This document shows, piece by piece, positions 10,898-56,278 of a stretch of DNA of 64,000 nucleotides. Every line of letters starts with the position of its first letter. The first letter of the stretch is position 1. The notes under the pieces are model-generated. The model was not told the origin of the DNA and ran no database searches. It saw only the letters and a list, made by a program, of their open reading frames with translations. Position numbers and translations under genes: made by a program. The DNA comes from Candidatus Aminicenantes bacterium (GTDB lineage Bacteria; Acidobacteriota; Aminicenantia; Aminicenantales; Aminicenantaceae), in NCBI GenBank assembly GCA_011772495.1, contig WVZL01000016.1:228499-292498 (forward strand), given 5' to 3'.

Positions 10898-11845
10898 TTG
10901 AACTCAATGCAAGAAAAAAGCACTGCGGTTTGTGTCTACGGCCCTGTTCCTTCCCGACGCCTGGGATTTTCCTTGGGCATTGACATCATCCCCGCTAAAA
11001 CCTGCTCCCTGGACTGCATCTACTGCCAATTGGGCCCCACCACCAAAAAAACTCTCCAAAGAAAAGAATATATCTCTTGGAAAAAGATTACGTCCCAAAT
11101 TAAAAGTATCCTTGCCTCGAGGCAGCGGATCGATTACCTGACTTTTTCTGGCTCTGGAGAGCCAACTCTAAATTCAGCCTTAGGAAAACTCATCTCAGAA
11201 ATCAAGAAAATAACCTCCATCCCAGTGGCTGTCTTGACTAACAGCTCTCTCCTTTCTCGAAAAAGCGTCAGGGAAGCTTTAATGGAGGCAGACGTAGTCG
11301 TTCCCTCTTTGGATGCCGCCACCCAAGAGGTCTTTATTAACCTCAACCGGCCGCATCCATCCCTTAAAGCCGAGAAAATCATAACGGGATTGAAAAAGTT
11401 TCGCCAGGAATTCAAGGGTTCTATCTGGGTCGAGGTCATGCTGGTGAAAAATATCAACGATTCTCCTTCTCATATCCAGAAACTCAAGGAAGTCATCGAG
11501 GAGATAAAACCTGAGAAAGTCCAGCTTAACACGGTGGTGCGTCCTCCCTCAGAAGAATTTGCCCGCCCTTTAAGTTCAGAAGAGCTGGAAAAAATAAGGG
11601 ACGCTTGGGGCGAAAACTGCGAGATAATTGCTGAATTCGAAAAGAAGATACAAATACCTCGAGAGGCAAATCAGGAAGAAGCTATTCTCTCCATGATTCA
11701 GCGAAGGCCTGTAACTCTCTCGGACATTTCCACCTCTTTAGGAAAGGACAAGAATGAAATCAGAAAGCACCTTGGCGCTCTCCTCAAAGAAGGAAAAATC
11801 AAACTGGTCATCCACAAGAAAATAAAATACTACGAGCCAATATAA
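10898..11845 (+). CDS. Radical SAM protein (COG0731-like) with a C-terminal winged-helix-like tail
   Basis: It begins VYGPVPSRRLGFSLGIDIIPAKTCSLDCIYCQ, which contains the CxxxCxxC motif, and has FSGSGEPT. The C-terminal segment is PVTLSDISTSLGKDKNEIRKHLGALLKEGKI. Confidence 0.75.
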   Translation: MNSMQEKSTAVCVYGPVPSRRLGFSLGIDIIPAKTCSLDCIYCQLGPTTKKTLQRKEYISWKKITSQIKSILASRQRIDYLTFSGSGEPTLNSALGKLISEIKKITSIPVAVLTNSSLLSRKSVREALMEADVVVPSLDAATQEVFINLNRPHPSLKAEKIITGLKKFRQEFKGSIWVEVMLVKNINDSPSHIQKLKEVIEEIKPEKVQLNTVVRPPSEEFARPLSSEELEKIRDAWGENCEIIAEFEKKIQIPREANQEEAILSMIQRRPVTLSDISTSLGKDKNEIRKHLGALLKEGKIKLVIHKKIKYYEPI

Positions 11846-14779: not shown

Positions 14780-16123
14780 ATGACCAAATTCATTTCCGCT
14801 GCCCTTGTCCTTTTTCTGCTCCTGTCGATCCCACTTCATCTCAAGGGTTCCAAGGTCTTTCCATATGATTACCAAATCGAGGAATTGGAAAACGGCCTGA
14901 GAGTTATCTCTATCCCCCTCGGCAACCCCAACATCATTTCTTACTACACCATCGTCCGTTCAGGCTCCAGAAACGAAGTCGAACCTGGGAAATCTGGGTT
15001 TGCTCACTTCTTCGAGCACATGATGTTCAAAGGCACCAAAAAGTTTCCTACTCAGGTCTACGAAGAAATCTTAACGGGATTGGGTGCAGGCACAAACGGC
15101 TATACCTCAGACGATTACACCTGCTATTACGTTGTTTTTGCCGGAAGAGAAAACCTGGAGAAAGTCGTAGAGCTCCAAGCTGACATATTCATCAATCTCT
15201 ACTACACCGAAGAAATGCTCAAAACAGAAGCCCCGGTTATAGAAGGAGAATACTACCGCAGCGTTTCCAATCCAGGCCGCAAGATTTACGAAATTTTGAG
15301 GGATACTGCTTTTGAAAAGCACTCTTACAAACACACTGTTATAGGCTATTTCGATGATATCCTGGATATGCCCAACCAGTTTGAATACAGCCAGCTCTAC
15401 AGAAAGCGCTTTTACGCTCCTGATAATACCATTGTTCTCGTGGCTGGAGATTATGACCACGATCAACTGATGGAGTATATCAAGAAATATTATGGCGACT
15501 GGGAAAAATCAGGGTACAAACTCGTGACTCCTGAAGAGCCCCCTCAAAAGAAAGCCAAAAGAGCTCACTTCGATTGGCCCACGAAAACACTTCCTCGCTT
15601 GGCTATCGGCTTTCATGGGCCTGCTTACTCTGAAGAGAAAATGGATAAAGCTGCTCTCAACCTTCTGGCTGAAATCGCCTTTTCCCGCTCATCTCCTCTT
15701 TATCAAAAATTGGTCATCGAGGAACAAAAATGCCTCAGCCTGTATGCCAGCTTTGGGGACCGCCGCGATCCCTACCTCTTGACCTTCAATTCCATAATCA
15801 AAAAGGACGAAGACCTTCCCTATGTGGAGAAGGCAATATCCCAGGAGCTGGAAAGGCTCAAGAAAGAACCTGTCGCCGAAGAAGTCCTGACTGATGTGAA
15901 ATCCAACCTGAAATATTCCTTTGCCAATTCTATGGGAACCACTGATGGAGTGGCCAGCTCCCTGGCTTTTTATATCAATTTGGCAGCTGACCCAGAAACT
16001 GTGAACAGACTCTTCGCCCTGTATGAAAAGGTAACCCCCGAGGACATTCAAGACATGGCAAAAAAATACTTCAAAAAGACAAACAGCACGGTGGTCACCC
16101 TAGCAGGAGGAAAATCAAAATGA
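14780..16123 (+). CDS. M16 (pitrilysin/insulinase) family zinc peptidase, catalytic subunit, secreted
   Basis: It has a signal peptide and the inverted zinc motif HFFEH in GFAHFFEHMMFKGT. A strong SD (AAAGGAGGA) precedes it. Confidence 0.85.
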   Translation: MTKFISAALVLFLLLSIPLHLKGSKVFPYDYQIEELENGLRVISIPLGNPNIISYYTIVRSGSRNEVEPGKSGFAHFFEHMMFKGTKKFPTQVYEEILTGLGAGTNGYTSDDYTCYYVVFAGRENLEKVVELQADIFINLYYTEEMLKTEAPVIEGEYYRSVSNPGRKIYEILRDTAFEKHSYKHTVIGYFDDILDMPNQFEYSQLYRKRFYAPDNTIVLVAGDYDHDQLMEYIKKYYGDWEKSGYKLVTPEEPPQKKAKRAHFDWPTKTLPRLAIGFHGPAYSEEKMDKAALNLLAEIAFSRSSPLYQKLVIEEQKCLSLYASFGDRRDPYLLTFNSIIKKDEDLPYVEKAISQELERLKKEPVAEEVLTDVKSNLKYSFANSMGTTDGVASSLAFYINLAADPETVNRLFALYEKVTPEDIQDMAKKYFKKTNSTVVTLAGGKSK

Positions 16124-17655
16124 GAAAGAGAAAAAATTTTCTGTTCGGAATCTTTTTTCTGGGTTTATCATTTTTTTTGTTTTCATGCGCTAAAGTCGAC
16201 CCCAACACACTTTCTTCTGAACTCCTCCTCCTTGAGGGAAACCCTCTGGTCAGCTTCAGAATTTTGCTCAAGGTTGGCTCAGCCCATGACCCGGCTGGGA
16301 AAGAGGGCCTCTGCCAGCTGGCCTTCACTATGCTCGCCAGCGGCGGTAGCCAGAGCCTGACGTTTAAGGAAATATCAAAGAAATTATATCCGATGGCTGC
16401 TCGAGTAGGACTAAGAGTGGACAAAGAGATGTCCGTTTTTACCGGGCAGGTTCACACCGACAATCTGGAAAAATACTACGCTATCCTGAAAGACATGCTC
16501 CTCAATCCCGGCTTCAGGGAAGATGATTTCAAGAGGATTAAAACCAACCATCTCAACTTCTTGCAAAAGACCTTAGTCGGGAGCAACGATGAACAGTTCG
16601 GAAAAGAAATCCTGAACCTGCTGATGTACGAAGGGCATCCCTACGGCCATCACGAAGCAGGAACGGTAGAAGCACTGGAAAGCATAACTTTGGATGAGAT
16701 AAAGGCCTTTTACAAAGAGCATTTCCTCCAGGGCAATATCACCATCGGTCTGGCCGGCGGGTATCCTGCTGATTTCCCGGACAAGGTCAGGGAAGATTTC
16801 TCCGCGGTGCCAGAAGGATTAACTGCTCCTTTAGCGCTGCTTGAACAGCGCAGTTCTGAAGGGCTTGAAATTGTCATAGCTGACAAAAAGACACCGGCGA
16901 CGGCTTTCTCCATGGGGTTTCCAGTGCCCATTTCCAGGGCTGATGAAGATTTCTTTGCTTTATGGATTGCCGGCTCTCACTTCGGAGAACACAGGCAGAG
17001 CGTTTCCCACCTCTTTCAAAAAATCCGCGAAGAGAGAGGACAGAATTACGGCGATTATGCTTACATCGAACATTTTATCCAGGGAAGGCGTAAGTTTCCG
17101 GCCACCAACTACTGCCGGCAACAGCAGTACTTCTCTATCTGGATTCGTCCTCTAGCCAATTCCAACCGCCACTTTGTCCTCCGCCAGACATTAAGAGAGC
17201 TCAAAAAGCTGGTCGAAGAAGGCATCTCCAGGGAAAGGTTTGAACTGGTGCGAACCTACCTCCTGAACTACACCAAACTCTACACTCAGACTCTTGGCGA
17301 GAGGCTCGGCTGGCAGATGGATTCTCACTACTACGGCTACCAAGATTTCTTGGAAGAAGTGCAGAGGAGGCTGCCCAAGATTAAACACGAAGACGTCAAC
17401 CGGGCCATCAAAAAATATCTGAACTTCAACAATATCTACATTGCCATTATCACCGAGGATGCAGAAGCCTTGAAAGAGGCCATGGTAGCCAACACACCAT
17501 CACCGATTACCTATGCCAATCCCAACATGCCCCAGGAAATACTCGAAGAAGACCTCGTCATCCAGAGTTTTCCTCTCGATATAAAGCCGGAAAAGGTTAA
17601 AATCGCAACCAACACAGAATTTTTCCAGAAAACAGGACTTCCCCAGATTGATTAG
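16120..17655 (+). CDS. M16 family peptidase-like protein, non-catalytic partner subunit
   Basis: Its architecture is M16-like but it has no HxxEH motif. It carries a lipoprotein-like signal (FFLFSCAK). It overlaps the upstream M16 gene by 4 nt (ATGA). Confidence 0.75.
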   Translation: MRKRKNFLFGIFFLGLSFFLFSCAKVDPNTLSSELLLLEGNPLVSFRILLKVGSAHDPAGKEGLCQLAFTMLASGGSQSLTFKEISKKLYPMAARVGLRVDKEMSVFTGQVHTDNLEKYYAILKDMLLNPGFREDDFKRIKTNHLNFLQKTLVGSNDEQFGKEILNLLMYEGHPYGHHEAGTVEALESITLDEIKAFYKEHFLQGNITIGLAGGYPADFPDKVREDFSAVPEGLTAPLALLEQRSSEGLEIVIADKKTPATAFSMGFPVPISRADEDFFALWIAGSHFGEHRQSVSHLFQKIREERGQNYGDYAYIEHFIQGRRKFPATNYCRQQQYFSIWIRPLANSNRHFVLRQTLRELKKLVEEGISRERFELVRTYLLNYTKLYTQTLGERLGWQMDSHYYGYQDFLEEVQRRLPKIKHEDVNRAIKKYLNFNNIYIAIITEDAEALKEAMVANTPSPITYANPNMPQEILEEDLVIQSFPLDIKPEKVKIATNTEFFQKTGLPQID

Positions 17656-17660
17656 AGATT

Positions 17661-18842
17661 TTATCCCAGAACTTTAAAAAAACGAGAAAAAACCTCATTA
17701 GCTCGGCGCAGATAATGGATCAGCTTTACTTCTGAGAGCGGAATATAGTTTCTCTGGGCAATGAATTGACGGGGAGCGAAAAATGTCCTTCCCACAAATT
17801 TCAGCTTAGCGAATACCCCCCGGTTCATCGAAAGGTGGACGAAATAACTCAATCCAGGAAGACGCCGATTTCTTGAGATGGCGTTCATAAAAATTTTCTC
17901 GCCCACACTGAAATGCTTAGGCCTCAACTCCGATAGAACATCTTCAGGGATTTGGGTTCCCAAAAATTTAGAGCTGAAATAGAGGCTCAAATAGACCATT
18001 TTATCCAGATTAAATTCGTAAGTCTCGTATATCAGGCGGCTCCAATCCAATCGTCCCTGATAATAATTCACAGCCTCATTGATGTCGCACAAAAGGCTTA
18101 ATTTACTCAAAGAATGGGTCACCCGGAGAGCATGTTCTGAAAGGTGGATGAGCAGGTGGTGGGGCGCCATGACCAATGTTTCTACGCCTGCAATCTCAGT
18201 ATTTTCTGCATCCCTCCAAACATTTTCCATTTTAATATTTCTAATGTATGATTCATTGGGAATCGTGGAGTTGACAAAATGCCAGTGGATATGAAAAGAG
18301 GGCGAATTCTCTTCTCTGCTTCGATAATCGAGGGTGGTCAAATAGGTCGAGGAAAAATCAACTTCATCCACTCCGGCATCCACTGGCCCATAACCTAATG
18401 TTTTAAGCCGCTCATCTGCGTGGGCCATGTCTTCTTCTTTCACCAGCAGGTCTACATCTGACATGGGCCTCAAAGCTATGTTTTCATATACTTCCTCTGC
18501 TAAGGCCGCGCCTTTTAGGACTATGACTTCGGGTCCTGAATTCTTGAATGCTTCTAGGACCTTTCCCAACTCCTTAAAAATAAGGGTATTCTTGGTGGCA
18601 TTCAGATAATAATCCTCTTCGAATCCTTCAAAAATATCACCTGGAATGCTCGGATAGTCCTGCATGATTTCATTTAATCTTGAATAGAGTAAGGCTGAAA
18701 CCCCATTTTCTCTCGCCTTCTCCAGGAAGATTCCCCAATCTAACCTATTCTTCACTGCTTCAATGATTTTGCGCTCAACCAACTCTTCTTTTTCTCTTCG
18801 ACAGCAGTAAAGCAGCAATCGATCTTCTTGTGTCCAGCTCAA
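17661..18842 (-). CDS. NTP_transf_5-type (uncharacterised) nucleotidyltransferase family protein
   Basis: VLKGAALAEEVYENIALRPMSDVDLLVKEEDMAHADERLKTLGY matches the hallmark block of the PF14907-type family. It is the last gene of the RiPP-like operon. Confidence 0.7.
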   Translation of the reverse strand: MSWTQEDRLLLYCCRREKEELVERKIIEAVKNRLDWGIFLEKARENGVSALLYSRLNEIMQDYPSIPGDIFEGFEEDYYLNATKNTLIFKELGKVLEAFKNSGPEVIVLKGAALAEEVYENIALRPMSDVDLLVKEEDMAHADERLKTLGYGPVDAGVDEVDFSSTYLTTLDYRSREENSPSFHIHWHFVNSTIPNESYIRNIKMENVWRDAENTEIAGVETLVMAPHHLLIHLSEHALRVTHSLSKLSLLCDINEAVNYYQGRLDWSRLIYETYEFNLDKMVYLSLYFSSKFLGTQIPEDVLSELRPKHFSVGEKIFMNAISRNRRLPGLSYFVHLSMNRGVFAKLKFVGRTFFAPRQFIAQRNYIPLSEVKLIHYLRRANEVFSRFFKVLG

Positions 18843-18933
18843 TTATTTACTCCTCTGAGAACTTTCCTTTCCAAAAGGAGAATTGAAAATGAATCAAGAC
18901 AAGCCCGAGAAAAATATTCTCTATTACACGAAT

Positions 18934-19950
18934 TTATCCTGATTTAATATTCTTAGCCAGGATTTTTTGGCGGCGTAGAGTCGTTCTGGCTTCTTGAATA
19001 AGATGTTTTTCCAGTTCAGGAATCGAGATTTGGCGAAATCCAGACTTTTGATACAATCCTTGGGCAGGTTTAGCATCTTCAAAAACGAGAAGCTTAATTT
19101 CTGAAGCACCGTGTTGGGCTGCTAACTCTGTAGCCATCTTTGTCAATTTCTCAGCGATTCCCATTCTTCGATAACGCCAATTCACCTTCATAACAAAGAT
19201 CCACCAGCCTGCGTAGGGAAAATTGCTTTCTGGAAATTTTGTGAGGTTTACACCTGCGATAACCTTATCTTTCCGTTTGGCTACAAGCCAAAATTCAGTA
19301 ACTCCGGATTTTCCTCCCTTCTTAAAAGAGCCATCCGTAATATCCTTCAACTCTGGTTCCTGATTGTACCTGTAAAGTCGGGAAAGCGCCTGAGCATCTT
19401 CGGGAACTGCGATTTGAAAACGGATTTTTTCTTTCCTTAATCTTTTGACTAAAGTGCTATAGATTTTAAGGCTCTGTATCTTCTCTGTAAGGCCACCCAA
19501 TAGTTTCCTTCCCTTGGACTTGACGACACTCCCGGCCGGATAAATCCACCGGTTGAAGGGAGCAATTCCCACAAAGAACAGACCTATTATATGATAGAGC
19601 TTGGTATCTATTCTTCTTATCCGCCCCTTCCTTTCGATGGCGACAACCTTGCCTAAAGCTTTTTGAATATCCACCCTTTCTGGGGGGCCAAAAGCGGCAT
19701 CTCCTTTAATGAGCAGGGTCATTCCCCCTTCTTTTTTTTGTTTTCCCATAACCCGGTGCACTATGACCTTGTTTTCGTCTGCCAAGTAGAATACCACCTC
19801 ACCTGTTTTAACAGAGGAGCTTTCAACTGGACTGACTGTTATAAAATCTCCATCCTGAATAAAGGGACGCATACTCCAGCCTTTGGCTTGAAAACGAACG
19901 GATTTTCGTTTTTTAAAGATATCTTTGGTTAATTCTAATAAGACTTCCAT
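18934..19950 (-). CDS. S24/S26-type serine peptidase fused to a GNAT N-acetyltransferase
   Basis: The N-terminal half has GWSMRPFIQDGD (Ser nucleophile motif), VHRV and LIKGDA (Lys general base region). A hydrophobic segment (IIGLFFVGIAPF) follows. The C-terminal half has GNAT motif A (WRYRRMGIAEKL...AQGLYQKSGF). Confidence 0.7.
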   Translation of the reverse strand: MEVLLELTKDIFKKRKSVRFQAKGWSMRPFIQDGDFITVSPVESSSVKTGEVVFYLADENKVIVHRVMGKQKKEGGMTLLIKGDAAFGPPERVDIQKALGKVVAIERKGRIRRIDTKLYHIIGLFFVGIAPFNRWIYPAGSVVKSKGRKLLGGLTEKIQSLKIYSTLVKRLRKEKIRFQIAVPEDAQALSRLYRYNQEPELKDITDGSFKKGGKSGVTEFWLVAKRKDKVIAGVNLTKFPESNFPYAGWWIFVMKVNWRYRRMGIAEKLTKMATELAAQHGASEIKLLVFEDAKPAQGLYQKSGFRQISIPELEKHLIQEARTTLRRQKILAKNIKSG

Positions 19951-19962
19951 ATTATCAATCTT

Positions 19963-21888
19963 CTAGATATTGCTGACAAAATCAACAGCGCTTTTATCAG
20001 CCTTGAAGCCTAATTCATAGCAAGGAATCTCGCGTGCTAACTCATCAATAAATTCAAGGGCAGATTCTATTCCCTTCTTATCCCAGAAAGTAAGAAAGGA
20101 ACAGACAATTAAACGGGAGGCAGCCTTTATTGGTTCGATCTTTCTCACACTATTCTTCTTGGCCTTCTTGAGAAAGAAAATCTTTCTTAAAGGCGCCTTT
20201 TCTGGTGAACACACCTTAATGTCCCCATGCCAAGGAGTTCCGTACATCCAAAATCGGCCCTTTACCTGACGAAGAATTATCCTGTCATCGCTGAGGATTT
20301 TGGTTCCTTCTTCATCTTTTCTCAAGCTGGCGATAGTGCTCTTTCCAGCGCCAGAGCTCCCGACAAAAAGTATCCCTTCTCCGTTATCATTAATACCGTA
20401 GCTATGAACGAGAAGACCTCCTCTTTGAGAGAGAAGGTTCATTATCAAGATCTCTCCTAAAGGATAGCCAAAAAAGTTTTCTAATCGCAGCTCTTTTGAC
20501 GCAGAGTAGAAGTCAACTTTCTTAAAATGACGATCAGAAACCATTACTGTCTCCAGTTTGTTCTGATCGCAAGAATAAGCAGTTTTGTTCCTACTCACTT
20601 GATAAAGCTTCCACGGGCCTTCGGAATCGAAGACCTTTCTTTTTTGCTTAAAATTAGGCCTGGAATCAGAATGAACCTCTATATCTATATCTGACCTTCT
20701 GGAACTAATGAATGATGAATAGGGATGATTGACCTGAATGGATTTATGAGAGGAAAAAGCCAAAGTCATATCACCGATAGTCAATTTTCCCTTTCCCTTT
20801 TGGAATTCCAGCTCTTTTTCCCATCCATACCTTTCCTTGGAAAAAGCTTTCAGCTTAGGTAAGGTACGAATATTCTTGTGGATTTGAATCTCTATCTGGC
20901 TGCTCAAAGGATACAGTCTTTCCTTTTTCAAGTCATTCAAGGAAGGAACCGGCCATCTCTGGAAAGGGTAATAATGGGTTAAAGAGAAGCGCCCCTCAAC
21001 ATCTTTATCTAAGCTGTATTCAAACAGGTTGTCTGGCTCAGAAATCTTTAAGTTTATCCAAGAGCCGGGTTGTTTTATGCCCTTATCTTGAATATAAACT
21101 ACAGCCTTGGGTCTTAACATTCTCTTTATCTGGGCCGTCGGGTCTAGGCGAAAGGGCATAAAGGAACTGACTGCAAGATCAATACTTCCTTGATGATTCG
21201 AGAGAAAAGAATCTGCATTATCTTTCAATAGGATTAAATTTTTATGCCTGAACTTTGTTCTTTCTATCAATCTCTCGTTGGGATCTATCCCGATAACCTT
21301 GACCCTCTCTGTCCTGGCTAAAAGATAGGCTAAGAATCCCTGTCCACAGCCGACATCCAAGATGGTCGGCACTCCTTTTCCCGAGTGCAGAAACTGAGCC
21401 AATCTGACAATCTTATCGATATCCATGCTCCTCGGTATCCACCAGGTTAAAGGTTTAGATTCGTCCCTAAAATCATCCAGGGAAATACTGGAAAAATCCT
21501 TGGTGTTCATATCGAAGAGCTCTTGATAGGACGAGGGAATTAGACCTGTACATCTGTTCCCTTCTTGGAAGATACAGGAATCACAATCAGGAAAGGAAGT
21601 GAATCTCTTTATCTTCTCATAATCTTTCCATCCTGGAAGGCAAAAGGGGAAGTCAGCATCTATACCTATCTTCATCATCTTGAGTCGGGATATGAAGTCT
21701 CTTAAGACCCTCCTGTTTTCCAAGGTCAGGTTAGACGGAGACCAGCTAATCTCCAGCTTAATCTTCTTGGGTTTTAAGAGTTCAAAGTCTGAGATGATTC
21801 TGGAGAGGGCTCCGGAAAGAAACCCGGAGGAATGAAAACGAAGAGAAATGTTTACTTCAAATATATTTTTTTTTAATATATCCTTCAA
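19963..21888 (-). CDS. Three-part protein: N-terminal Cys-rich region, class I SAM methyltransferase, C-terminal HPr kinase-like P-loop domain
   Basis: The N-terminal region (aa ~80-115) reads FPFCLPGW...PDCDSCIFQEGNRCTG. The methyltransferase motif I is ILDVGCGQGFLAYLLA...VIGIDPN. The C-terminal part reads GILFVGSSGAGKSTIA...ILSDDRI...GTPWHGD, like the HprK C-terminal domain. It uses a TTG start 31 nt after the stop of the small peptide gene. Confidence 0.65.
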   Translation of the reverse strand: MKDILKKNIFEVNISLRFHSSGFLSGALSRIISDFELLKPKKIKLEISWSPSNLTLENRRVLRDFISRLKMMKIGIDADFPFCLPGWKDYEKIKRFTSFPDCDSCIFQEGNRCTGLIPSSYQELFDMNTKDFSSISLDDFRDESKPLTWWIPRSMDIDKIVRLAQFLHSGKGVPTILDVGCGQGFLAYLLARTERVKVIGIDPNERLIERTKFRHKNLILLKDNADSFLSNHQGSIDLAVSSFMPFRLDPTAQIKRMLRPKAVVYIQDKGIKQPGSWINLKISEPDNLFEYSLDKDVEGRFSLTHYYPFQRWPVPSLNDLKKERLYPLSSQIEIQIHKNIRTLPKLKAFSKERYGWEKELEFQKGKGKLTIGDMTLAFSSHKSIQVNHPYSSFISSRRSDIDIEVHSDSRPNFKQKRKVFDSEGPWKLYQVSRNKTAYSCDQNKLETVMVSDRHFKKVDFYSASKELRLENFFGYPLGEILIMNLLSQRGGLLVHSYGINDNGEGILFVGSSGAGKSTIASLRKDEEGTKILSDDRIILRQVKGRFWMYGTPWHGDIKVCSPEKAPLRKIFFLKKAKKNSVRKIEPIKAASRLIVCSFLTFWDKKGIESALEFIDELAREIPCYELGFKADKSAVDFVSNI

Positions 21889-21919
21889 TCTGAGAAACCT
21901 TCTTAAGTATTCTCATCTA

Positions 21920-22078
21920 TTAACTTCCCGCAGCTGAACACTTGGTCCCATGGTATTTGCAGTCGACTGGCGGACCCACCCCACTCGCTCCTTCCATTTT
22001 ACAGCCGGAAAGAACCGCCTCCTGGGCTTTAAGTTTTACTGCTTTGATGTTAGGTTTGGAATACTTTTTCTTCTTCAT
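21920..22078 (-). CDS. Candidate RiPP precursor peptide, 52 aa: MKKKKYSKPNIKAVKLKAQEAVLSGCKMEGASGVGPPVDCKYHGTKCSAAGS
   Basis: I translated this by hand from the minus strand. It is missing from the ORF track, which lists nothing under 60 aa. AAGGAGGTG (22094-22086) lies 7 nt upstream of the ATG at 22078. The ORF overlaps the last 29 nt of the rSAM/SPASM gene in another frame. It has a Lys-rich leader with Y6-x-x-P9-x-I11, three Cys (26, 40, 47) and a C-terminal Ser. Confidence 0.6.
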   Translation of the reverse strand: MKKKKYSKPNIKAVKLKAQEAVLSGCKMEGASGVGPPVDCKYHGTKCSAAGS

Positions 22079-23183
22079 CTTTTTTCACCTCCTTATTTAT
22101 CCATTTCCCTAATTTATATCGCTTCTCTAATTCTCCAATTCTCAAATGAGTGACTTCACAGAGATATTCTGATGGAGTTTCGAAATCGCCGCCTTCTAGA
22201 TAAGACCAGCCAGGGCATTGGTTGCAGAAAGTAAAGAGTTCACAGCTCTGGCATCTATAATCCCCTTTCACTTTCTGGCTCCTCATTTCTGAGAATGTCT
22301 TCTGCCAACCCTCCCTAAAGCGTCCCTCCCGAAGGTTATAATAGGGGATTCTGGTAATAATGCAGAGGTGGAGGTTTCCAAAAGGATCGACTCTGAAGGT
22401 GTTCAAACCTGCCCTACAGGTAAAGACTCTATCAGAATCCGGTGGACCCCAGTATTTCTCGCAAAGCTCCTTGTAGCTGGGAAGCCTCCTCTCATCGGCA
22501 ATATCTAGATCTACCACTTCCCTGGGAGTAACTCTCAACTGGCAAGGTTCTTGGGAACCATCCAGCCTCGGATTAATCAAGCAATCGTGCCTGAACTCAA
22601 AGCCAAGCTGTTCTGCATATTCTTTAATCTGAAGGACTTCGGATATATTATCTTTAGTCACCAAGGTCTTCAATTTCAGCGGGAGATTCCTCTCTTTGCT
22701 CAGTTCCACTGCCTTAAAGACTCTCTCAAAAGAACCGCTAACTTCCCCGGTTACCTTTTCATAGGTCCCCTTTGTTATTCCGTATAAAGGGATTTCAACA
22801 GAAAAAGGACGCCATTCGGCTAAGAAATCTGCCATCTCTTCATCAAGCAAGACACCATTGGTGAAGAGAAAGATGAGCAATCCTTGCCTTTTAGCATAGA
22901 GATAGAGATCTTTAAAATCCTCTCTGATCAATGGCTCGCCGCCAGTGAAGCAGAGCCAGAAACATCCCTCTTTAGTTACTTCATCGATTATTCGATGGAT
23001 TTCTTCTGTAGAGAGTTCTTGGGCATGAGGGCCTTCTGTACAGTAACAGTGCTTACACTTAAGATTACATCTCCAGGTTATCTCTAACGAACCCAGCAAA
23101 GGTATGCGTTTATTAATGCCTTTCTCATGGAGTTTCTGGCTGAATTCGCCATAACTGATTTCTTGGATACAGGAAGAGCTCAT
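22050..23183 (-). CDS. Radical SAM / SPASM-domain peptide-modifying enzyme
   Basis: It has WRCNLKCKHCY (CxxxCxxC) and FTGGEPL. The SPASM Cys pattern is CRAGLNTFRVDPFGNLHLC ... CQSCELFTFCNQCPGW ... YLCEV. It starts directly after the PqqD stop. Confidence 0.9.
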   Translation of the reverse strand: MSSSCIQEISYGEFSQKLHEKGINKRIPLLGSLEITWRCNLKCKHCYCTEGPHAQELSTEEIHRIIDEVTKEGCFWLCFTGGEPLIREDFKDLYLYAKRQGLLIFLFTNGVLLDEEMADFLAEWRPFSVEIPLYGITKGTYEKVTGEVSGSFERVFKAVELSKERNLPLKLKTLVTKDNISEVLQIKEYAEQLGFEFRHDCLINPRLDGSQEPCQLRVTPREVVDLDIADERRLPSYKELCEKYWGPPDSDRVFTCRAGLNTFRVDPFGNLHLCIITRIPYYNLREGRFREGWQKTFSEMRSQKVKGDYRCQSCELFTFCNQCPGWSYLEGGDFETPSEYLCEVTHLRIGELEKRYKLGKWINKEVKKDEEEKVFQT

Positions 23184-23474
23184 CTATTTTCTCTCGATTA
23201 TCTCCCCTTTCTCTAACTTGGAGAGGAATTCTTTGACATCCTTTTCAGCTTGTTCAACAGTGACTTCGAACTCTTGGTAAATCCTCATTTGGATATCGCC
23301 GACACTTCTCTTGCCGTCAATGAGTTCCCAGATCCGGGCGGCGACCTCGTTCAGGGTGTAGATATTTTCCAGGTCGCCGACATTTTTCTTTATGGGAACT
23401 AAAACGTACTCATCAGCTATCTTTCTCGATACAATAGAATCACTTTTTTTATACACTTTATCGAGAAAATCCAT
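23184..23474 (-). CDS. PqqD-family peptide chaperone (RiPP recognition element)
   Basis: It is 96 aa and reads VSRKIADEYVLVP....IYTLNEVAARIWELIDGKRSVGDIQMRIYQEFEV..EQAEKDVKEFLSKLEKGEII, a typical PqqD/RRE sequence. AAGGAGGG lies 11 nt upstream of the ATG. Confidence 0.85.
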   Translation of the reverse strand: MDFLDKVYKKSDSIVSRKIADEYVLVPIKKNVGDLENIYTLNEVAARIWELIDGKRSVGDIQMRIYQEFEVTVEQAEKDVKEFLSKLEKGEIIERK

Positions 23475-24063: not shown

Positions 24064-25545
24064 TTACGGTGAACTTCTTTTTGCCTGGCTCTGAAACTTC
24101 ACAAATATCGGATTAGAAATTAATCTTCTTCCTTTCCTATCTCTTATATCCAGACGATAGTATATCTTCCTGCCGGGCTCAAAATATTCATCTTCAAAAT
24201 AGATGCTCAAAGGAGTTTCCCCTGTAAATGTATGGATTAATTGACCACTTCGGATCAATCTAATGCTTAGAGAATTCCCTTTTTCTAAACCAATAGTGGA
24301 AATATGAATTGTTATTATTGGGTATCTTTTCAAAGATATTTCTTCCCCCATGATTCCTTTCTGAGTGGAATCAGATGAGGAAATAGAAAAATGTTCAAGA
24401 ACAAGTCTTGGCAAGTCGACATTTCCTGCATAAGCATAAATTCTTCCTTTCTTTATTGCATTTAGAATATCCGTTTTTGTTCTGTTCTTTACCAGAAAAA
24501 TAGTTGGATATCTTCCCAATCTTGCCCCAGCAGCGCCTTCTTCATGAAATTCAGCGGTAGAAACTCCCCAGGCAGGCCTTACCCTCTGACCCAAGCAGTA
24601 TTCCAATAATACTCTATCCCAAATATCACCTGGCTCTGTCACCGTTATTCTTTCTCCATACAGCGCTGAAAAACCCGTATAATTTTTGGATTCTAATAAC
24701 ACCTGAGGATAAGGAGGTGTATCTCTAGATATTGGGCCTAATTGCCCTCGACCCGATCTTGTTTCAGGATGGTTCCAGAAGATCATCCCTCCTCTAGAAT
24801 TGACATAATCGATCAACAATTGGTACGGCGAAATTCCCTGATCGCCATGGTACTGGTTATAGGGAGAGCTTCTGAAAGGATGATTATTAACGAAAAGAAG
24901 CAATGTCAAAACAAGAATAAATATTCCAGAATATCTGACCAATCGCTTTCCTTTTAACATGTATAGAGCAAGTAAAAGGGGAATAAGCAAGAAAAAATAA
25001 GTCGCAGGAATGGAGGGAAGAATATACCTGGTGGAAAAACCATTATGAAGGATGGGCAATTCCATATAAACTCTTGGCTCTTCAAGGCCTACTATTAAGA
25101 GATGCCTTTCCCAATCACGCACAGTCAGGTTTCCACTCAAGTAGCTTCCTTTCCAGTAATAAAAAGGAGCCGACTCTGCTCCGGGAATCAATATCATGTC
25201 CGGATATTTTTTTTGGTTTGATTCAATCGCAGATAAGTAATTTTCTGATCCTCTTTCATTGATCGAAGGCTCTTCGACTCTTCTTTTCAAAATATTCTGA
25301 AAAGGACGAATTCCGTATTCGAGGACTTTCCGGTCATGGTCATTGATGAAAAGCACCTGAAATCCTCTCTTTTGGGCCAGCTTAAGGAGATATTCAATCG
25401 AGTGTGCTCCATCACTAAAATCACTACGGAGGCCGATGAGACCTGGTATTTGTATGAAGTCATCTTCAAGCGGGAAACTCTGGATAGACATCCCAAGGCT
25501 GAATATAATAGAAATTAAAATTATCTTATGAGTGCGACTTCTCAT
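24064..25545 (-). CDS. PHP-like domain protein with a signal peptide and central TM segments
   Basis: It contains SDGAHSIEYLLKLAQKRGFQVLFINDHD, which resembles the PHP phosphoesterase N-terminal block. The usual HxH before SDG reads LRSDF here. The central segment is hydrophobic (YFFLLIPLLLALYML...ILVLTLLLF). Confidence 0.5.
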   Translation of the reverse strand: MRSRTHKIILISIIFSLGMSIQSFPLEDDFIQIPGLIGLRSDFSDGAHSIEYLLKLAQKRGFQVLFINDHDRKVLEYGIRPFQNILKRRVEEPSINERGSENYLSAIESNQKKYPDMILIPGAESAPFYYWKGSYLSGNLTVRDWERHLLIVGLEEPRVYMELPILHNGFSTRYILPSIPATYFFLLIPLLLALYMLKGKRLVRYSGIFILVLTLLLFVNNHPFRSSPYNQYHGDQGISPYQLLIDYVNSRGGMIFWNHPETRSGRGQLGPISRDTPPYPQVLLESKNYTGFSALYGERITVTEPGDIWDRVLLEYCLGQRVRPAWGVSTAEFHEEGAAGARLGRYPTIFLVKNRTKTDILNAIKKGRIYAYAGNVDLPRLVLEHFSISSSDSTQKGIMGEEISLKRYPIITIHISTIGLEKGNSLSIRLIRSGQLIHTFTGETPLSIYFEDEYFEPGRKIYYRLDIRDRKGRRLISNPIFVKFQSQAKRSSP

Positions 25546-25907: not shown

Positions 25908-26714
25908 GTGATGTATGAAAAATATTGGGATCTGAACGAGAAGCCCTTCGAAAACACGCCTGATCCACGCTTTATTTATTTCTCCCATGAGCATCTAGAG
26001 GCTATCAGCAGATTGACTTATGCCGTCGAGGAACGCAAAGGAGCAGCTTTACTGACCGGTGATTACGGCTGTGGAAAAACAGTCATGAGCAGGCTGCTCT
26101 TTGAGCGATTGCCCTCGGACAGACATGAAATAGGGCTGGTCACCAATCCTATATTAAGCCCGATCGCTCTATTGCGAGAAATCTGCTTTCAACTGGGCAT
26201 GAAAAATACGAAAGGATCCAACAAATCACAATTGCTGGCCAACCTCAACGAGCACCTCTACGAAAATCTGAACAACAACCAAGAAACGGTCATCATCATT
26301 GATGAGGCCCAAACTATAAAAAATCCTCTGGCTTTCGAAGAATTGAGACTGTTACTAAACTTTCAGTTAAATCAAAGATTTCTGATGACTCTTATCCTCA
26401 TTGGACAGCCAGAATTACGAGAAACCATAGACAAACTAAAACAGCTAAAACAAAGACTAGCCGTAAGGTATCATCTCAATCCTTTGAATAAGAAAGAAAC
26501 CGGAAAGTATATCATCCATAGACTGGAAATCGGGGGACTTAAAAGAAAAATCTTTACCGACAATAGTGTAAATTTAATTTGGGAAGGGTCTGGAGGAATT
26601 CCGCGAATGATAAACACAATATGTGACATGTGCCTACTGGTGGGTTACAATAATAGACTCCAAAAAATCAACGAGGTGGTTGTGAAAGATGTCATCCGAG
26701 ATTTAGGAGAATGA
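25908..26714 (+). CDS. ExeA/GspA/MshM-like AAA+ ATPase
   Basis: It starts YWDLNEKPFENTPDPRFIYFSHEHLEA. Walker A is GDYGCGKT, Walker B is IIIDEAQ, and LILIGQPEL is present. This layout is typical of ExeA-family proteins. Confidence 0.8.
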   Translation: MMYEKYWDLNEKPFENTPDPRFIYFSHEHLEAISRLTYAVEERKGAALLTGDYGCGKTVMSRLLFERLPSDRHEIGLVTNPILSPIALLREICFQLGMKNTKGSNKSQLLANLNEHLYENLNNNQETVIIIDEAQTIKNPLAFEELRLLLNFQLNQRFLMTLILIGQPELRETIDKLKQLKQRLAVRYHLNPLNKKETGKYIIHRLEIGGLKRKIFTDNSVNLIWEGSGGIPRMINTICDMCLLVGYNNRLQKINEVVVKDVIRDLGE

Positions 26715-26720
26715 TAGAAC

Positions 26721-27719
26721 ATGGTTAAAATATCTGAAATCATCAGAAAACCTGAAAGAGAAAGACCCAAACGCAAGCCAGGCATAATTTCAGAAGTCAT
26801 AAAAATCAAAAAAGAAGAAGAAAGTTTCCCAGGAATAAAAAAAATATACGAAGAGGCAATTCATAAATTAAAAAGACTCATGAATGATATTAAAGATGGA
26901 AAAAATGTTGAGGGGAAAAATGTCGCTGCCCTGGCTGAAAAAATAATAGAAAGTCTTAGGATTAATAAAAATATCCTAATATCCTTTGTGAATAATTCTG
27001 CTCTGCATGAAAGCAATGAAGATTATCTCTACCAGCATTCTCTAAACGCCTCTATCTTGGCCACTAACCTCGGCTCAGCTCGTGGTTACTCTAAAGACAA
27101 ACTCCTGGATCTATGTGGTTCGACTTTACTGCATGATATTGGCATCCTCAAAGTGCCCCGAGAAATCATAACCAAGCCCTCAATATTAACCAAAGAGGAA
27201 AACGACCAGATTAAAAAGCATCCAGCCCATGGCTTGGAACTCTTGGAGAACATAAAGAATCCTCCTGAATCCGCAGCCGCGGTCATCTATGAACATCATG
27301 AAAGAATAGACGGAACAGGCTATCCAGAAGGGAAAACAGGAGAGGAAATTTCCGAGTATGCCAAGATCGTGGCTATCGTTGAGGTTTACGAGGCCATCAC
27401 CCATCCCCGTCCCTATCACCGAAATATCCCCTATGAGGGCGCAAGAATGATTGTCCAGGAGGCTAAGAGCTCCTTCGAGCCTGAATTCGTTAAACTCTTT
27501 TTGAATTACATCACTCCTTATCCCCCTGGAAGCCTGATATTATTGAACAATGATGAAGTTGGTCGGGTTGTCCATATCAACGAAGGGCTTCCTCTGCGCC
27601 CTATCGTGGAAATAATTTATGATTCAGAGGGCAGGCCCGCTGAGAAACCGAAGCGGATCGACTTATCCAAGTCTCCTGTCTTAAACATCAAGAGAGCTGT
27701 AGACGAGAGCAGTCTGTAA
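26721..27719 (+). CDS. HD-GYP domain c-di-GMP phosphodiesterase-like protein
   Basis: It contains LLHDIGILKVP (HD) and YEHHERIDGTGYPEG (GYP). It starts 6 nt downstream of the exeA-like gene. Confidence 0.85.
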   Translation: MVKISEIIRKPERERPKRKPGIISEVIKIKKEEESFPGIKKIYEEAIHKLKRLMNDIKDGKNVEGKNVAALAEKIIESLRINKNILISFVNNSALHESNEDYLYQHSLNASILATNLGSARGYSKDKLLDLCGSTLLHDIGILKVPREIITKPSILTKEENDQIKKHPAHGLELLENIKNPPESAAAVIYEHHERIDGTGYPEGKTGEEISEYAKIVAIVEVYEAITHPRPYHRNIPYEGARMIVQEAKSSFEPEFVKLFLNYITPYPPGSLILLNNDEVGRVVHINEGLPLRPIVEIIYDSEGRPAEKPKRIDLSKSPVLNIKRAVDESSL

Positions 27720-54325: not shown

Positions 54326-56278
54326 ATGAAATTGCTAAAACTGATCATCATCTCACTATTTCTTTTCTCTTCCCTCCAAGCTCAGACAGACCAGGAAGAA
54401 AAGAAGAAAGAAGAAGAATACGCCCATGACCATCAAGAAATCATCGTCACTGCTAAGAAGGAACCGATCACCGAGATCGCCAACATTAAAGAAATCAGCA
54501 GAGAAGAGATAGAAAAAAAGGGCGCCTTAAACCCGGTTGAAGCCCTGGATTTCATTCCCGGTGCCTTCTACACGGTGGGGTCCAGGGGAGAAACAAACTT
54601 GCAGCTAAGGGGATTCAGCCAGAGACAAGTTGTTATCATGATCGACGGAATCCCGGTGAACCTGCCTTACACCGGGGAAATCGATCTGTCCCATTTTCCT
54701 CTCGAAGGGCTGGCTAAGATAAAGGTTATCAAAGGGACTTCCTCGACTGTATACGGTTCCAATACTATGGGAGGAATCATTAACCTCATCACTGAAACTC
54801 CAAAGAAGAAAACGAAGGCCCATTTTTCTCTTGACTTTGGAAGAAACCTAAACCAGAAGGCTGCCTTTTCCCTTGCCAAAAGATGGGAGAAAATAGGCTT
54901 CTGGATTTCTGGAGAGTACAAGAACTCCAACGGCTTTTACCTTTCCCATAAATTTGAACCTGAATTAAACGAAGATGGCGCTAAGCGTCAAAATTCCGAT
55001 TTCACCAACAGAGGAGTCAACGGAAGATTCCGTTATTCGTGGGAAAAAGGATCCCTTTTCTTGGATTTCAATTATCTAGATAACAAAAGGGGAATCCCCC
55101 CTCATGTTTCAGAAGACAGGCCTCGCTACTGGCGCTTTCCCACCTGGCGAAAAAACAACCTCAAGCTTTCTCTCAAGCATAGTCCTTTCCAGGGATTAGA
55201 ACTGAGAGGAAGCGTTTATTACGACCTCTACTACAACATTCTCGATTCTTATGATGACGCCACCTACTCAACCCAGGAGAGAAGGTATTCCTTTCACAGC
55301 ATCTTCGACGATTACTCTTTAGGTGCCTCCTTCCTCGGCGAGCTAAGCCAGGGAAAAAATCATTTCCGCCTGGGCTTGAATCTTAAAAAAGACGCCCACC
55401 GCTCTCAGGCCGATGAGTTTGAACCATGGGAAAAATACGAGGCCGCCAATTATTCCTTGGGAATAGAGGATGAAATCAGCCTAAAAGATAACCTTTCTCT
55501 TGTTTTGGGAACGAGCCTGGATTGGCTGAAGCCAGTATATGCCAACGGTGAAGAACTCAGAGAACCGATCTTTCATTTCAATCCATTAATCGGTCTCTCC
55601 TACCGGATCAATTCTTCCCAAATCTATTTCTCGATGGCCAGAAAGTCCAGGTTCCCGACCCTTAAAGAGCTTTATTCGGAATACATCGGCAGGAATATTC
55701 CCAATCCAGAGCTCAAAGAAGAAAAATCAATGAGTTATGAACTTGGTTTCCGCTTTCTTGCCTCAGGTGTTTCTCTGGATGTTTCAATTTTCTATTCCAA
55801 TCTCAAGGACTTGATTGTCCAAAAAAGAACAGGTGCTCTTTTCCAGATGCAAAACGTTGACCAAGCTGTATACAGCGGCGCTGAATTCTCGTTCAATTTC
55901 CCGGTAAAAGACGGGTATGATCTGAGCTTTAACTACTCCTACTTGCAAGCCAAAAACACTTCCTCAGACAGAATATCTTCTAGGCTCGAATACAAGCCTT
56001 CTCATAAACTGGCCCTGTTTTTCTCATTCAAGGGGCCTTTTTCATTAGAAGGCATGGTGAAGAGCGCTTATACAGGAAAAAGATATTTTGAAGATTTGGC
56101 AGGAATCTATCAGCCTCTTTCCCCATACATGCTCTGGGATATTAGACTCTCTAGAAACCTGGGCCGTTTCGAAATCTATTTTTTACTTAAAAATATTCTC
56201 GATGTGAATTATGAATTTGAAGACGGATTTCCTGGACCCGGGAGAGAGATCCTTGTCGGGTTTACCTGGAAAAACTAA
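54326..56278 (+). CDS. TonB-dependent receptor (second, tandem)
   Basis: It has a signal peptide and a plug domain reading QEIIVTAKKEP...LQLRGFSQRQVVIMIDGIPVNLPY...IKVIKGTSSTVYGSNTMGGIINLIT, followed by a beta-barrel of similar length (650 aa). Confidence 0.85.
   Translation: MKLLKLIIISLFLFSSLQAQTDQEEKKKEEEYAHDHQEIIVTAKKEPITEIANIKEISREEIEKKGALNPVEALDFIPGAFYTVGSRGETNLQLRGFSQRQVVIMIDGIPVNLPYTGEIDLSHFPLEGLAKIKVIKGTSSTVYGSNTMGGIINLITETPKKKTKAHFSLDFGRNLNQKAAFSLAKRWEKIGFWISGEYKNSNGFYLSHKFEPELNEDGAKRQNSDFTNRGVNGRFRYSWEKGSLFLDFNYLDNKRGIPPHVSEDRPRYWRFPTWRKNNLKLSLKHSPFQGLELRGSVYYDLYYNILDSYDDATYSTQERRYSFHSIFDDYSLGASFLGELSQGKNHFRLGLNLKKDAHRSQADEFEPWEKYEAANYSLGIEDEISLKDNLSLVLGTSLDWLKPVYANGEELREPIFHFNPLIGLSYRINSSQIYFSMARKSRFPTLKELYSEYIGRNIPNPELKEEKSMSYELGFRFLASGVSLDVSIFYSNLKDLIVQKRTGALFQMQNVDQAVYSGAEFSFNFPVKDGYDLSFNYSYLQAKNTSSDRISSRLEYKPSHKLALFFSFKGPFSLEGMVKSAYTGKRYFEDLAGIYQPLSPYMLWDIRLSRNLGRFEIYFLLKNILDVNYEFEDGFPGPGREILVGFTWKN

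Follow-up and report, generated by a model that had tools for sequence, protein, structure and literature searches.

The stretch analysed here (the window) comprises 64,000 nucleotides of contig WVZL01000016.1 (positions 228,499–292,498), from a metagenome-assembled genome (MAG) of a Candidatus Aminicenantes bacterium, and carries on its minus strand, between positions 17,661 and 23,474, a compact operon whose gene content points to the biosynthesis of a ribosomally made and post-translationally modified peptide (RiPP). A preliminary description of this DNA had listed six co-directional genes and a small open reading frame (ORF) of 52 residues; all seven ORFs are present at the coordinates and in the tight packing given there, with successive spacings of 0, −29 (an overlap), 31, 12 and 91 nt. 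Read along the minus strand, the operon encodes a PqqD-family RiPP recognition element (RRE) of 96 residues (23184–23474; PF05402, E = 3.3e-19), a radical S-adenosylmethionine (SAM) enzyme of 377 residues with a SPASM-type auxiliary-cluster domain (22050–23183; PF04055, 2.5e-24), a putative precursor peptide of 52 residues (21920–22078), a 641-residue fusion protein (19963–21888) made of a four-cysteine module, a methyltransferase and a domain resembling ScmC and HPr kinase/phosphorylase (HprK), a 338-residue protein (18934–19950) joining an S24/S26 peptidase to a GNAT N-acetyltransferase, and a 393-residue Pol-beta-type nucleotidyltransferase of the NTP_transf_5 family (17661–18842; PF14907, 7.4e-46). 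Scans with hidden Markov models (HMM) support each of the domain assignments made earlier, the models PF04055, PF05402 and PF14907 and those for S24/S26 peptidases, GNAT and methyltransferases all giving matches. In GenBank these proteins (NIM90443–NIM90448) bear generic names, namely "PqqD family peptide modification chaperone", "radical SAM protein", "methyltransferase domain-containing protein" and "signal peptidase I", and the NTP_transf_5 protein and the 52-residue peptide are both labelled "hypothetical protein". A scan of the region 17.3–24.1 kb for promoters and terminators returned the same counts as shuffled sequences and was uninformative.

Precursor peptides and recurrence of the cassette

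The 52-residue ORF (MKKKKYSKPNIKAVKLKAQEAVLSGCKMEGASGVGPPVDCKYHGTKCSAAGS) is a real gene, as had been proposed: a strong Shine-Dalgarno sequence (AAGGAGGTG) lies 7 nt upstream of its ATG, and the ORF matches a profile built from homologous peptides with E = 1.3e-18. It is not "hidden", as the preliminary description had it, since GenBank annotates it as hypothetical protein NIM90446.1. Comparison of 80 unique peptides of this family reveals a leader with a K/R-rich N-terminus (44% Lys or Arg) followed by the consensus YxKPxΦxxVxLxxEEAVLxxCK. The motif YxxPxΦxxΦxΦ is found in 80/80 precursors and, numbering from its Tyr (80 of 80), the conserved columns are Lys at +2 (74), Pro at +3 (80), Ile, Leu or Val at +5 (80), Val or Ile at +8 (80), Leu at +10 (79), E-A-V-L at +14 to +17 (67–73 each), Cys at +20 (74) and Lys at +21 (72); the spacing from the Tyr to the first Cys is exactly 20 in 66/70. 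The core, about 27 residues long, contains 16% Gly, 11% Ser and 8% Thr and is also rich in Lys, while acidic residues (Asp 2.8%, Glu 1.8%) occupy no fixed position. Exactly three Cys are present in 66/80 precursors, with median spacings of 14 from the first to the second, 6 from the second to the third and 6 from the third to the end. The last residue is Ser in 65/80 and Thr in 8/80 (together 73/80), the penultimate one is Gly in 61/80, and 61/80 precursors end in Gly-Ser/Thr; this terminal Ser/Thr is the only one conserved in position, the internal ones being free. Mean pairwise identity amounts to 51% in the leader and to 11% in the core, and such a conserved leader followed by a hypervariable core reads as the classic signature of a RiPP precursor. 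The window peptide fits the family on every point (YSKPNI…EAVLSGCK…C…C…AGS, with the tail CSAAGS).

Relatives of the radical SAM enzyme were sought in one genome per species, the resulting genome count being a lower bound. More than 2,500 homologs (2,524 matches) were found in the protein collection, the best 120 of which each score above 400 bits, and relatives occur in at least 550 species genomes from more than 10 phyla, nearly all of them MAGs. Their hosts include Omnitrophota, Aminicenantes/Acidobacteriota, Desulfobacterota, Nitrospirota, Chloroflexota, WOR-3 and KSB1, together with Desantisbacteria, Cloacimonadota, Aerophobetes, Actinomycetes, one bacterium of the candidate phyla radiation and one archaeon of the Thermoplasmata. 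The family, carried mostly by uncultivated anaerobic species, is thus common rather than rare, and the locus is by no means confined to this genome.

Profiles built from the window's own proteins were then applied to 80 fetched loci (designated below by L and a number), each component being counted only in loci with enough flanking DNA. PqqD stands directly upstream of the radical SAM gene in 72/74 testable loci, the small peptide is found at the same position in 68/72, the ScmC-like domain in 62/64, the S24/S26 peptidase in 47/57, the NTP_transf_5 protein in 17/29 (about 60%) and GNAT in 7/29 (about 25%). PqqD, radical SAM enzyme, peptide, ScmC and peptidase follow one another in an almost constant order, after which come GNAT and NTP_transf_5 in the loci that have them, and in four of the loci (L001–L004) independent gene calls with precomputed Pfam matches display an identical layout. 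Since this ordered set is met again in dozens of genomes that are far apart in phylogeny, chance is excluded, and the near-fixed occurrence of five components defines the core of the cassette: PqqD, radical SAM/SPASM enzyme, precursor, ScmC and peptidase. NTP_transf_5, GNAT and methyltransferases are facultative decorations. The association of radical SAM, PqqD, kinase and peptidase genes first noticed in the window is therefore encountered elsewhere, although two of its members have changed status. The HprK-like protein, initially taken for a lasso-type addition, is a near-obligate core partner of the radical SAM enzyme, the family of the ScmC-like domain (2,489 homologs) equalling that of the enzyme in size; likewise the peptidase, seen earlier as standing in for missing lasso parts, is a component of the core.

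Gene fusions are frequent within the cassette. Peptidase and GNAT share one ORF in 10/11 of the loci in which GNAT is present, peptidase and NTP_transf_5 in 9/33, and all three are fused in L002, which argues that these enzymes act in one pathway. Fusion with the methyltransferase is restricted to the closest relatives of the window cassette; in two other loci (L085 and L086) the four-Cys module and the methyltransferase form a standalone gene between peptide and ScmC, and the 641-residue protein of the window reads as a fusion of two cassette genes. Other loci contain extra genes for a PRMT-type methyltransferase, other class I methyltransferases, a TP_methylase or ATP-binding cassette (ABC) transporters. 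A gene of about 400 codons lies between ScmC and peptidase in L005 (2419–3645), L009 (2605–3834), L010 (12055–13242) and L018 (12118–13287), and the inserted protein is the PRMT-type methyltransferase (PRMT_C, 1.5e-21). In L009 its C-terminal tail weakly resembles PqqD (0.0012), and in L010 it gives no PqqD match; with such a tail it would be a candidate leader-guided Arg/Lys methyltransferase. The cassette itself is found in two separate copies (L017 and L021) in the Aminicenantes genome CP070825.1 and is duplicated in tandem, with two precursors, in L060; in L037 three precursor genes lie in tandem, and two of them are without a Cys-containing core.

Enzymes of the cassette

The PqqD protein gives a sub-threshold match to the lasso_PqqD_Bac model (44.5 bits, cut-off 80). 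For the radical SAM enzyme, the preliminary description had proposed the Pfam SPASM model PF13186, which finds no match at E ≤ 0.01. The enzyme does align over its full length to the SPASM families MftC (model positions 6–327 of 339), AhbD and NirJ2, and JGI gives its homologs the name "radical SAM protein with 4Fe4S-binding SPASM domain". Alignment of 17 family members shows the invariant cluster C39xxxC43xxC46 and, in the C-terminal part, C256, C274, C311-x2-C314-x5-C320-x2-C323 and C342, so that the two features of radical SAM/SPASM maturases, a CxxxCxxC cluster and a Cys-rich auxiliary domain, are present. The nearest solved structure by sequence is that of the sactipeptide thioether synthase SkfB (1.3e-21), followed by PqqE, anSME, CteB and SuiB. 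On the other hand, all 81 NCBIfam matches lie far below their cut-offs, and the enzyme belongs to none of the curated sactipeptide/ranthipeptide maturase families (StsB 86 bits versus 625, PapB 64 versus 340).

The ScmC/HprK-like P-loop domain corresponds to residues 371–641 of the fusion protein (19966–20778). Homologs of this domain are all annotated as "hypothetical protein" and carry the precomputed Pfam entry PF27840 "ScmC", whereas direct sequence scores are weak: 0.003 for Hpr_kinase_C (PF07475), which had been put forward as a check of the kinase assignment, 2.8e-9 for HprK-related kinase B (TIGR04355) and 3e-8 for ScmC (TIGR04249). Hpr_kinase_C is the best Pfam family at E ≤ 0.01 for 21/34 homologs, none of which exceeds the gathering score, and with 17–19 bits against 33.3 the thresholds for bona fide HprK (PF07475 or TIGR00679) are not attained. 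Searching the PDB by sequence with the ScmC profile gave marginal matches only, the alignment with an HprK chain being that of the P-loop region (E = 0.008), so that a fold search was needed. An AlphaFold (AF2) model based on a 122-sequence alignment reached a predicted local distance difference test (pLDDT) value of 93 and a predicted template modelling score (pTM) of 0.90; an earlier model from 34 sequences, whose pLDDT fell to about 35 around the P-loop, was not used. Foldseek retrieved 43 PDB entries at E < 1e-3, all of them phosphoenolpyruvate carboxykinase (PEPCK) or HprK/P, the two families with this type of P-loop fold, with TM-scores of about 0.5 when normalised to the HprK catalytic domain. 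Among the conserved residues are His125, GTPWHG, LxD(D/E)R (72/73) and the Walker A loop GxS(G/T)xGK(S/T)T, which nearly every member keeps. The LxD(D/E)R motif matches the LxADDR segment of HprK. Model and alignment thus display the features of the HPr kinase/phosphorylase superfamily (PEPCK-like fold, Walker A loop, DDR-type motif) and, together with the weak sequence scores, identify the domain as a catalytically plausible but distant HprK-like phosphotransferase, for which PF27840 ScmC is the better description. Pairing of a radical SAM enzyme with an HprK-like protein has already been flagged in silico, in the ScmC of the TIGRFAMs SCM cassette and in Pfam PF27840.

The GTPWHG loop (ScmC residues 180–185, window approximately 20224–20241, minus strand) varies together with the precursor C-terminus. 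Among loci whose precursor lacks a terminal Ser/Thr, L052 and L063 lose the T-P-W of the loop and L083 changes its His; the only other deviation is that of the partial duplicate in L060. Comparing alignment columns, the association between loop and precursor end (table 63/1/1/2) has a Fisher p of 0.004, which makes GTPWHG a candidate loop for recognition of the substrate C-terminus.

The signal-peptidase-like domain (19546–19950; PF00717, 7e-7), a putative leader peptidase, scores 56.3 bits with TIGR02228, the archaeal-type signal peptidase I, above the cut-off of 51.85. Its motifs GxS26MxP, H65-R66 and G83-D84 are kept in at least 64/66 homologs and place Ser, His and Asp as they are in signal peptidases of the S26B (SipW/archaeal/ER) type. 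It is unusual for this type in being fused to GNAT (18937–19455; PF00583, 1.5e-12) and in having no N-terminal membrane anchor before the catalytic Ser. The class I SAM-dependent methyltransferase domain of the 641-residue protein (approximately residues 151–330, 20899–21438) matches PF13649 (2.8e-10) and PF13847 (8.5e-9). It is preceded by the four-Cys module (residues 1–150, 21439–21888), for which no Pfam match was obtained; the motif PxCLPGW…CxxCxFx6CxG is invariant in 12 homologs and probably forms a metal or Fe-S site. The CLPGW of this module echoes the CPGW that closes the SPASM domain of the radical SAM enzyme, and the module may accordingly be a SPASM-derived metal-binding remnant. 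Finally, the NTP_transf_5 protein scores 157 bits (threshold 31.2), and its Pol-beta-type motif K110-G111…D129xD131 is kept in 39/40 homologs.

Predicted pathway and competing explanations

We consider it somewhat better than an even chance (roughly 55%) that the cassette is a RiPP operon, representative of a large family, in which radical SAM crosslinking is combined with C-terminal phosphorylation, optional elaboration of the phosphate, leader removal and acetylation. Each step of this pathway is drawn from homology and conservation. PqqD, acting as the recognition element, would bind the conserved precursor leader (K/R-rich N-terminus and Y-x-K-P-x-I-x-x-V-x-L) and hand the bound peptide to the neighbouring radical SAM/SPASM enzyme, which would install crosslinks at the three conserved Cys, most probably thioethers of the sactipeptide/ranthipeptide type formed from these Cys. 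With ATP as donor, the ScmC-like domain of HprK/PEPCK fold would phosphorylate the near-invariant C-terminal Ser/Thr on its side chain. Where NTP_transf_5 is present, as here, it would add a glycosyl or nucleotidyl group to this phosphate, following the precedent of pseudomycoidin. The soluble S26B-type peptidase would cut off the leader, its fused GNAT would acetylate the newly exposed amine, the kinase-fused methyltransferase would in this genome add a methyl group, and the product would then be exported.

A RiPP-type locus, deduced at the outset from PqqD and the radical SAM/SPASM enzyme, is supported by the present data, and the C-terminal phosphorylation predicted at the same time gains strong new support from precursors that end almost invariably in Gly-Ser/Thr. 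In lasso peptide clusters, HPr-kinase homologs act on a linear precursor, whose C-terminal Ser they phosphorylate specifically and with little dependence on the remaining sequence, and the co-occurring nucleotidyltransferase puts one or more hexoses on the resulting Ser phosphate (PMC8498205; PMC7533575). The kinase step proposed for the cassette thus draws on three elements, namely the fold and motifs of the ScmC domain, the near-invariant C-terminal Gly-Ser/Thr and the published lasso precedent; covariation of the GTPWHG loop with the precursor C-terminus would add a small argument in the same direction.

Several observations weigh against this pathway. Its chemistry is deduced. The radical SAM enzyme falls far below every curated cut-off and its best full-length matches are MftC, AhbD and NirJ2, not the sactipeptide or ranthipeptide maturases, which leaves the predicted thioether chemistry tentative. 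The ScmC domain stays below the Pfam gathering score, its TM-scores to HprK are about 0.5, and its fold leaves the substrate unfixed; moreover, three loci have a seemingly catalytically intact ScmC although their precursor ends in neither Ser nor Thr. The covariation rests on these same three loci, all of Anaerolineae type, and may therefore reflect only one or two evolutionary events. A leader cleavage site is not legible in the precursor sequences, which have no clear AxA site, and the window cassette is without an adjoining exporter, whereas other loci have ABC or ABC-2 transporters beside the cassette.

Neither the cassette nor its precursor family or product turned up among open-access papers and bioRxiv preprints, where only work on lasso peptides and unrelated genome mining was encountered, and no described RiPP class was found to match the cassette, in agreement with what had first been noted. 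It would work like a radical SAM/SPASM RiPP system, similar to those of sactipeptides and ranthipeptides, yet it falls outside the curated maturase families, and its nearest formal relatives are in-silico definitions, the TIGRFAMs SCM cassette and Pfam ScmC. The SynChlorMet (SCM) cassette (ScmC TIGR04249, ScmD TIGR04248, ScmE/ScmF TIGR04250/04251) likewise combines a PqqD-like chaperone, radical SAM/SPASM proteins and an HprK-like ScmC. However, the window proteins are not SCM equivalogs, all their scores being well under the cut-offs (ScmC 33 versus 125, ScmD 34.5 versus 100, ScmE 86 versus 400), and there is a single radical SAM enzyme here where SCM has two. For the present cassette a precursor family can be identified; it differs further in its S26B-type peptidase and in the optional genes for NTP_transf_5, GNAT and methyltransferase. 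Neither precursor nor product is known for SCM. The "HPr-rel-A" neighbourhood evoked in the preliminary description turns out to be a resemblance and not a membership: HPr-rel-A and HprK-related kinases A and B (TIGR04352, TIGR04355) are distant HprK-like P-loop proteins, with which the window protein scores 22 and 36.5 bits against cut-offs of 200. Members of these families sit beside PqqD-family proteins in neighbourhoods of the exopolysaccharide (EPS) type.

Sactipeptide and ranthipeptide systems (SkfB, CteB, PapB) share with the cassette a radical SAM enzyme with SPASM/twitch domain, RRE-dependent leader recognition and cores with regularly spaced Cys; on the other hand, their known members have neither an obligate kinase partner nor an invariant C-terminal Gly-Ser. 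Mycofactocin (MftA/MftB/MftC) also relies on a PqqD-like chaperone and a radical SAM/SPASM enzyme that act on a small peptide with a conserved C-terminus, but with the MftC model the window enzyme attains 123 bits (cut-off 265), hypervariability of the core here takes the place of cofactor-type conservation, the MftD/E/F set is missing, and the C-terminus is Gly-Ser instead of Val-Tyr. Comparable, too, are the phosphorylated and phosphoglycosylated lasso peptides of the paeninodin/pseudomycoidin type, with their PqqD-type RRE, YxxP leader, HPr-kinase homolog, C-terminal Ser and "uncharacterized nucleotidyltransferase"; acetylation and methylation are known in lasso peptides as well (PMC8498205; PMC7533575). 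In contrast to these, the cassette has no cyclase or B2 protease, its class is defined by the radical SAM/SPASM enzyme, and leader removal would fall to a signal-peptidase-like enzyme. Furthermore, the kinase belongs to the core here and is accessory there, and the hosts are uncultivated anaerobes here and Firmicutes there.

These similarities raise the question of whether the locus is an ordinary lasso peptide locus with cyclase and B2 protease located elsewhere, since PqqD with its sub-threshold lasso_PqqD_Bac match, the YxxP leader, the HprK-like kinase, NTP_transf_5 and the C-terminal Ser all occur in lasso clusters of Firmicutes. PqqD-type RRE and YxxP motif are, however, common to many RiPP classes and do not discriminate in favour of lasso peptides; the radical SAM enzyme fills the position beside PqqD in nearly every locus, and the cores have no conserved acidic ring-forming residue. 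Pfam scans of the large window ORFs (leaving out 54326–56278 and several shorter ones) detected no Asn-synthetase-like or transglutaminase-like protein, and no ORF of 300 or more residues with an SGGxDS PP-loop turned up in a motif scan of the window; an SGGxDS ORF occurs in 1/84 related loci, 8 kb from the cassette. The lack of a lasso cyclase or protease reported earlier thus holds among the scanned ORFs, the peptidase of the operon being of S26B type. With the tests for both proteins failing, we regard an ordinary lasso locus as effectively refuted. Within a RiPP frame, phosphorylation by ScmC could alternatively activate Ser/Thr for elimination as in class III/IV lanthipeptide synthetases. 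Dehydro-residues would then react with the Cys thiols, the C-terminal Ser would pass through an unstable enamide to a C-terminal Gly-amide, and the radical SAM enzyme would perform another reaction (epimerisation, C-C crosslinking or MftC-like C-terminal processing). Such a scheme would suit cores rich in Ser, Thr and Gly that contain three Cys, as well as the best full-length match of the radical SAM enzyme, MftC, which works on the precursor C-terminus; ScmC is moreover kept in the loci without NTP_transf_5 (about 40% of loci), so that the phosphate need not serve as a handle for elaboration. We nevertheless judge it improbable: no homolog of a phosphoSer/Thr lyase or lanthionine cyclase appears in the cassette, positional conservation is limited to the terminal Ser/Thr, and the lasso precedent yields a stable phosphate (PMC8498205).

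Rather than being a secreted bioactive peptide, the product could also serve as a cofactor derived from the peptide, or as a component of the cell interior or envelope linked to EPS production, for example a phosphoglycosylated peptide that serves the neighbouring XrtA/PEP-CTERM-type EPS machinery as primer, anchor or signal. The cassette adjoins a large EPS locus in the window, and genes for Poly_export or Wzz/GNVR proteins are found at most 10 kb away in 9–10/30 long loci, directly adjoining the cassette in L001, L002 and L085. A TIGR03015-like ATPase and an HD-GYP-like protein are found in about 40% of loci, ORFs intervening between PqqD and the radical SAM gene in L040 and L052 have weak PEP-CTERM-like tails, and the precedent for NTP_transf_5 is a phosphoglycosylation (PMC8498205). 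Cofactor precursors have conserved cores, however, and the hypervariability found here disfavours a cofactor and agrees with diversifying selection acting on a peptide that is bioactive or serves in signalling; besides, the EPS association concerns only about one third of the loci, ABC-type exporters (10–14/30 long loci) being about equally frequent. This explanation appears doubtful to us, if slightly less so than elimination. We grant no greater credit to an extended form of the crosslinking and phosphorylation pathway, according to which the cassette would define a new RiPP class: an undescribed radical SAM crosslink of three Cys with an obligatory C-terminal phosphate placed by ScmC, further phosphoglycosylated or nucleotidylated in about 60% of cases, the peptide being a signal, primer or anchor coupled to the XrtA/PEP-CTERM-type EPS and biofilm apparatus of uncultivated anaerobes and not an antibiotic.

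The RiPP paradigm of a radical SAM enzyme with an RRE is already known, whereas the phylum-spanning family described here, with its obligatory HprK-like partner and C-terminal Gly-Ser signature, appears to be experimentally uncharacterised. If crosslinking followed by C-terminal phosphorylation were to hold true, it would provide a concrete, testable chemistry for a pathway of at least 550 species, including Aminicenantes, Omnitrophota, Desulfobacterota, Nitrospirota and Chloroflexota, and a function for the Pfam ScmC family with its approximately 2,500 "hypothetical proteins". The module of C-terminal Ser kinase and nucleotidyltransferase known from lasso peptides would then be a portable unit common to several RiPP classes, and the kinase, the GNAT-fused S26B-type leader peptidase and the hypervariable cores would serve peptide engineering.

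Polysaccharide locus and other neighbours

Beside the cassette, the window contains a divergent pair of genes (25908–27719, plus strand) for an AAA_22 ATPase and an HD-GYP-like (HD_5, 7e-30) protein. The ATPase matches TIGR03015, the "XrtA/PEP-CTERM system-associated ATPase", almost over its full length with 244.5 bits (cut-off 324.5). Within 6 kb of the radical SAM gene, AAA_22 occurs in 9/25 testable loci and HD_5 in 10/25, and the pair is near the cassette in L001, L002 and L004; these proteins are possible regulatory or contextual partners. A cell-surface polysaccharide locus of about 20 kb follows (27813–48343), encoding WbqC, a PIG-L deacetylase, a DegT aminotransferase, a GT4 priming transferase, GT9/GT1 proteins, a flippase, Wzy, a Wzc-like tyrosine kinase and a Poly_export protein. 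Its part from WbqC to GT4 is syntenic with the Aminicenantes genome CP070825.1 (L004). The recurrence of AAA_22/HD_5 or EPS-export neighbours suggests a biological link to envelope or biofilm, and the product may act in the context of the neighbouring EPS locus.

Directly upstream of PqqD and on the same strand lies a 493-residue ORF (24064–25545, minus strand) without a Pfam match, which weakly resembles CehA/McbA-family metallohydrolases (2e-11, below the cut-off). It is found at the same position in nine fetched loci, mostly of Aminicenantes, and so may be either an addition peculiar to that clade or a neighbour without relation to the cassette. At the other end of the operon, a convergent pair of insulinase-type M16 peptidases (14780–17655, plus strand) was considered as a leader protease of PqqF/G type and rejected, its homologs being absent from 80/80 related loci. 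In two Anaerolineae loci, L040 (8540–9910) and L052 (208–1527), a secreted protein of about 450 residues is encoded between PqqD and the radical SAM enzyme; its C-terminus (…VPEPGALLLL…RRR) is PEP-CTERM-like, with weak HMM matches (E of about 0.003, below cut-offs). Finally, a second radical SAM protein of the window (10898–11845, plus strand; 315 residues), which has no SPASM-type tail and gives generic matches to MoaA and tungsten-cofactor maturase-like proteins, is unrelated to the cassette.

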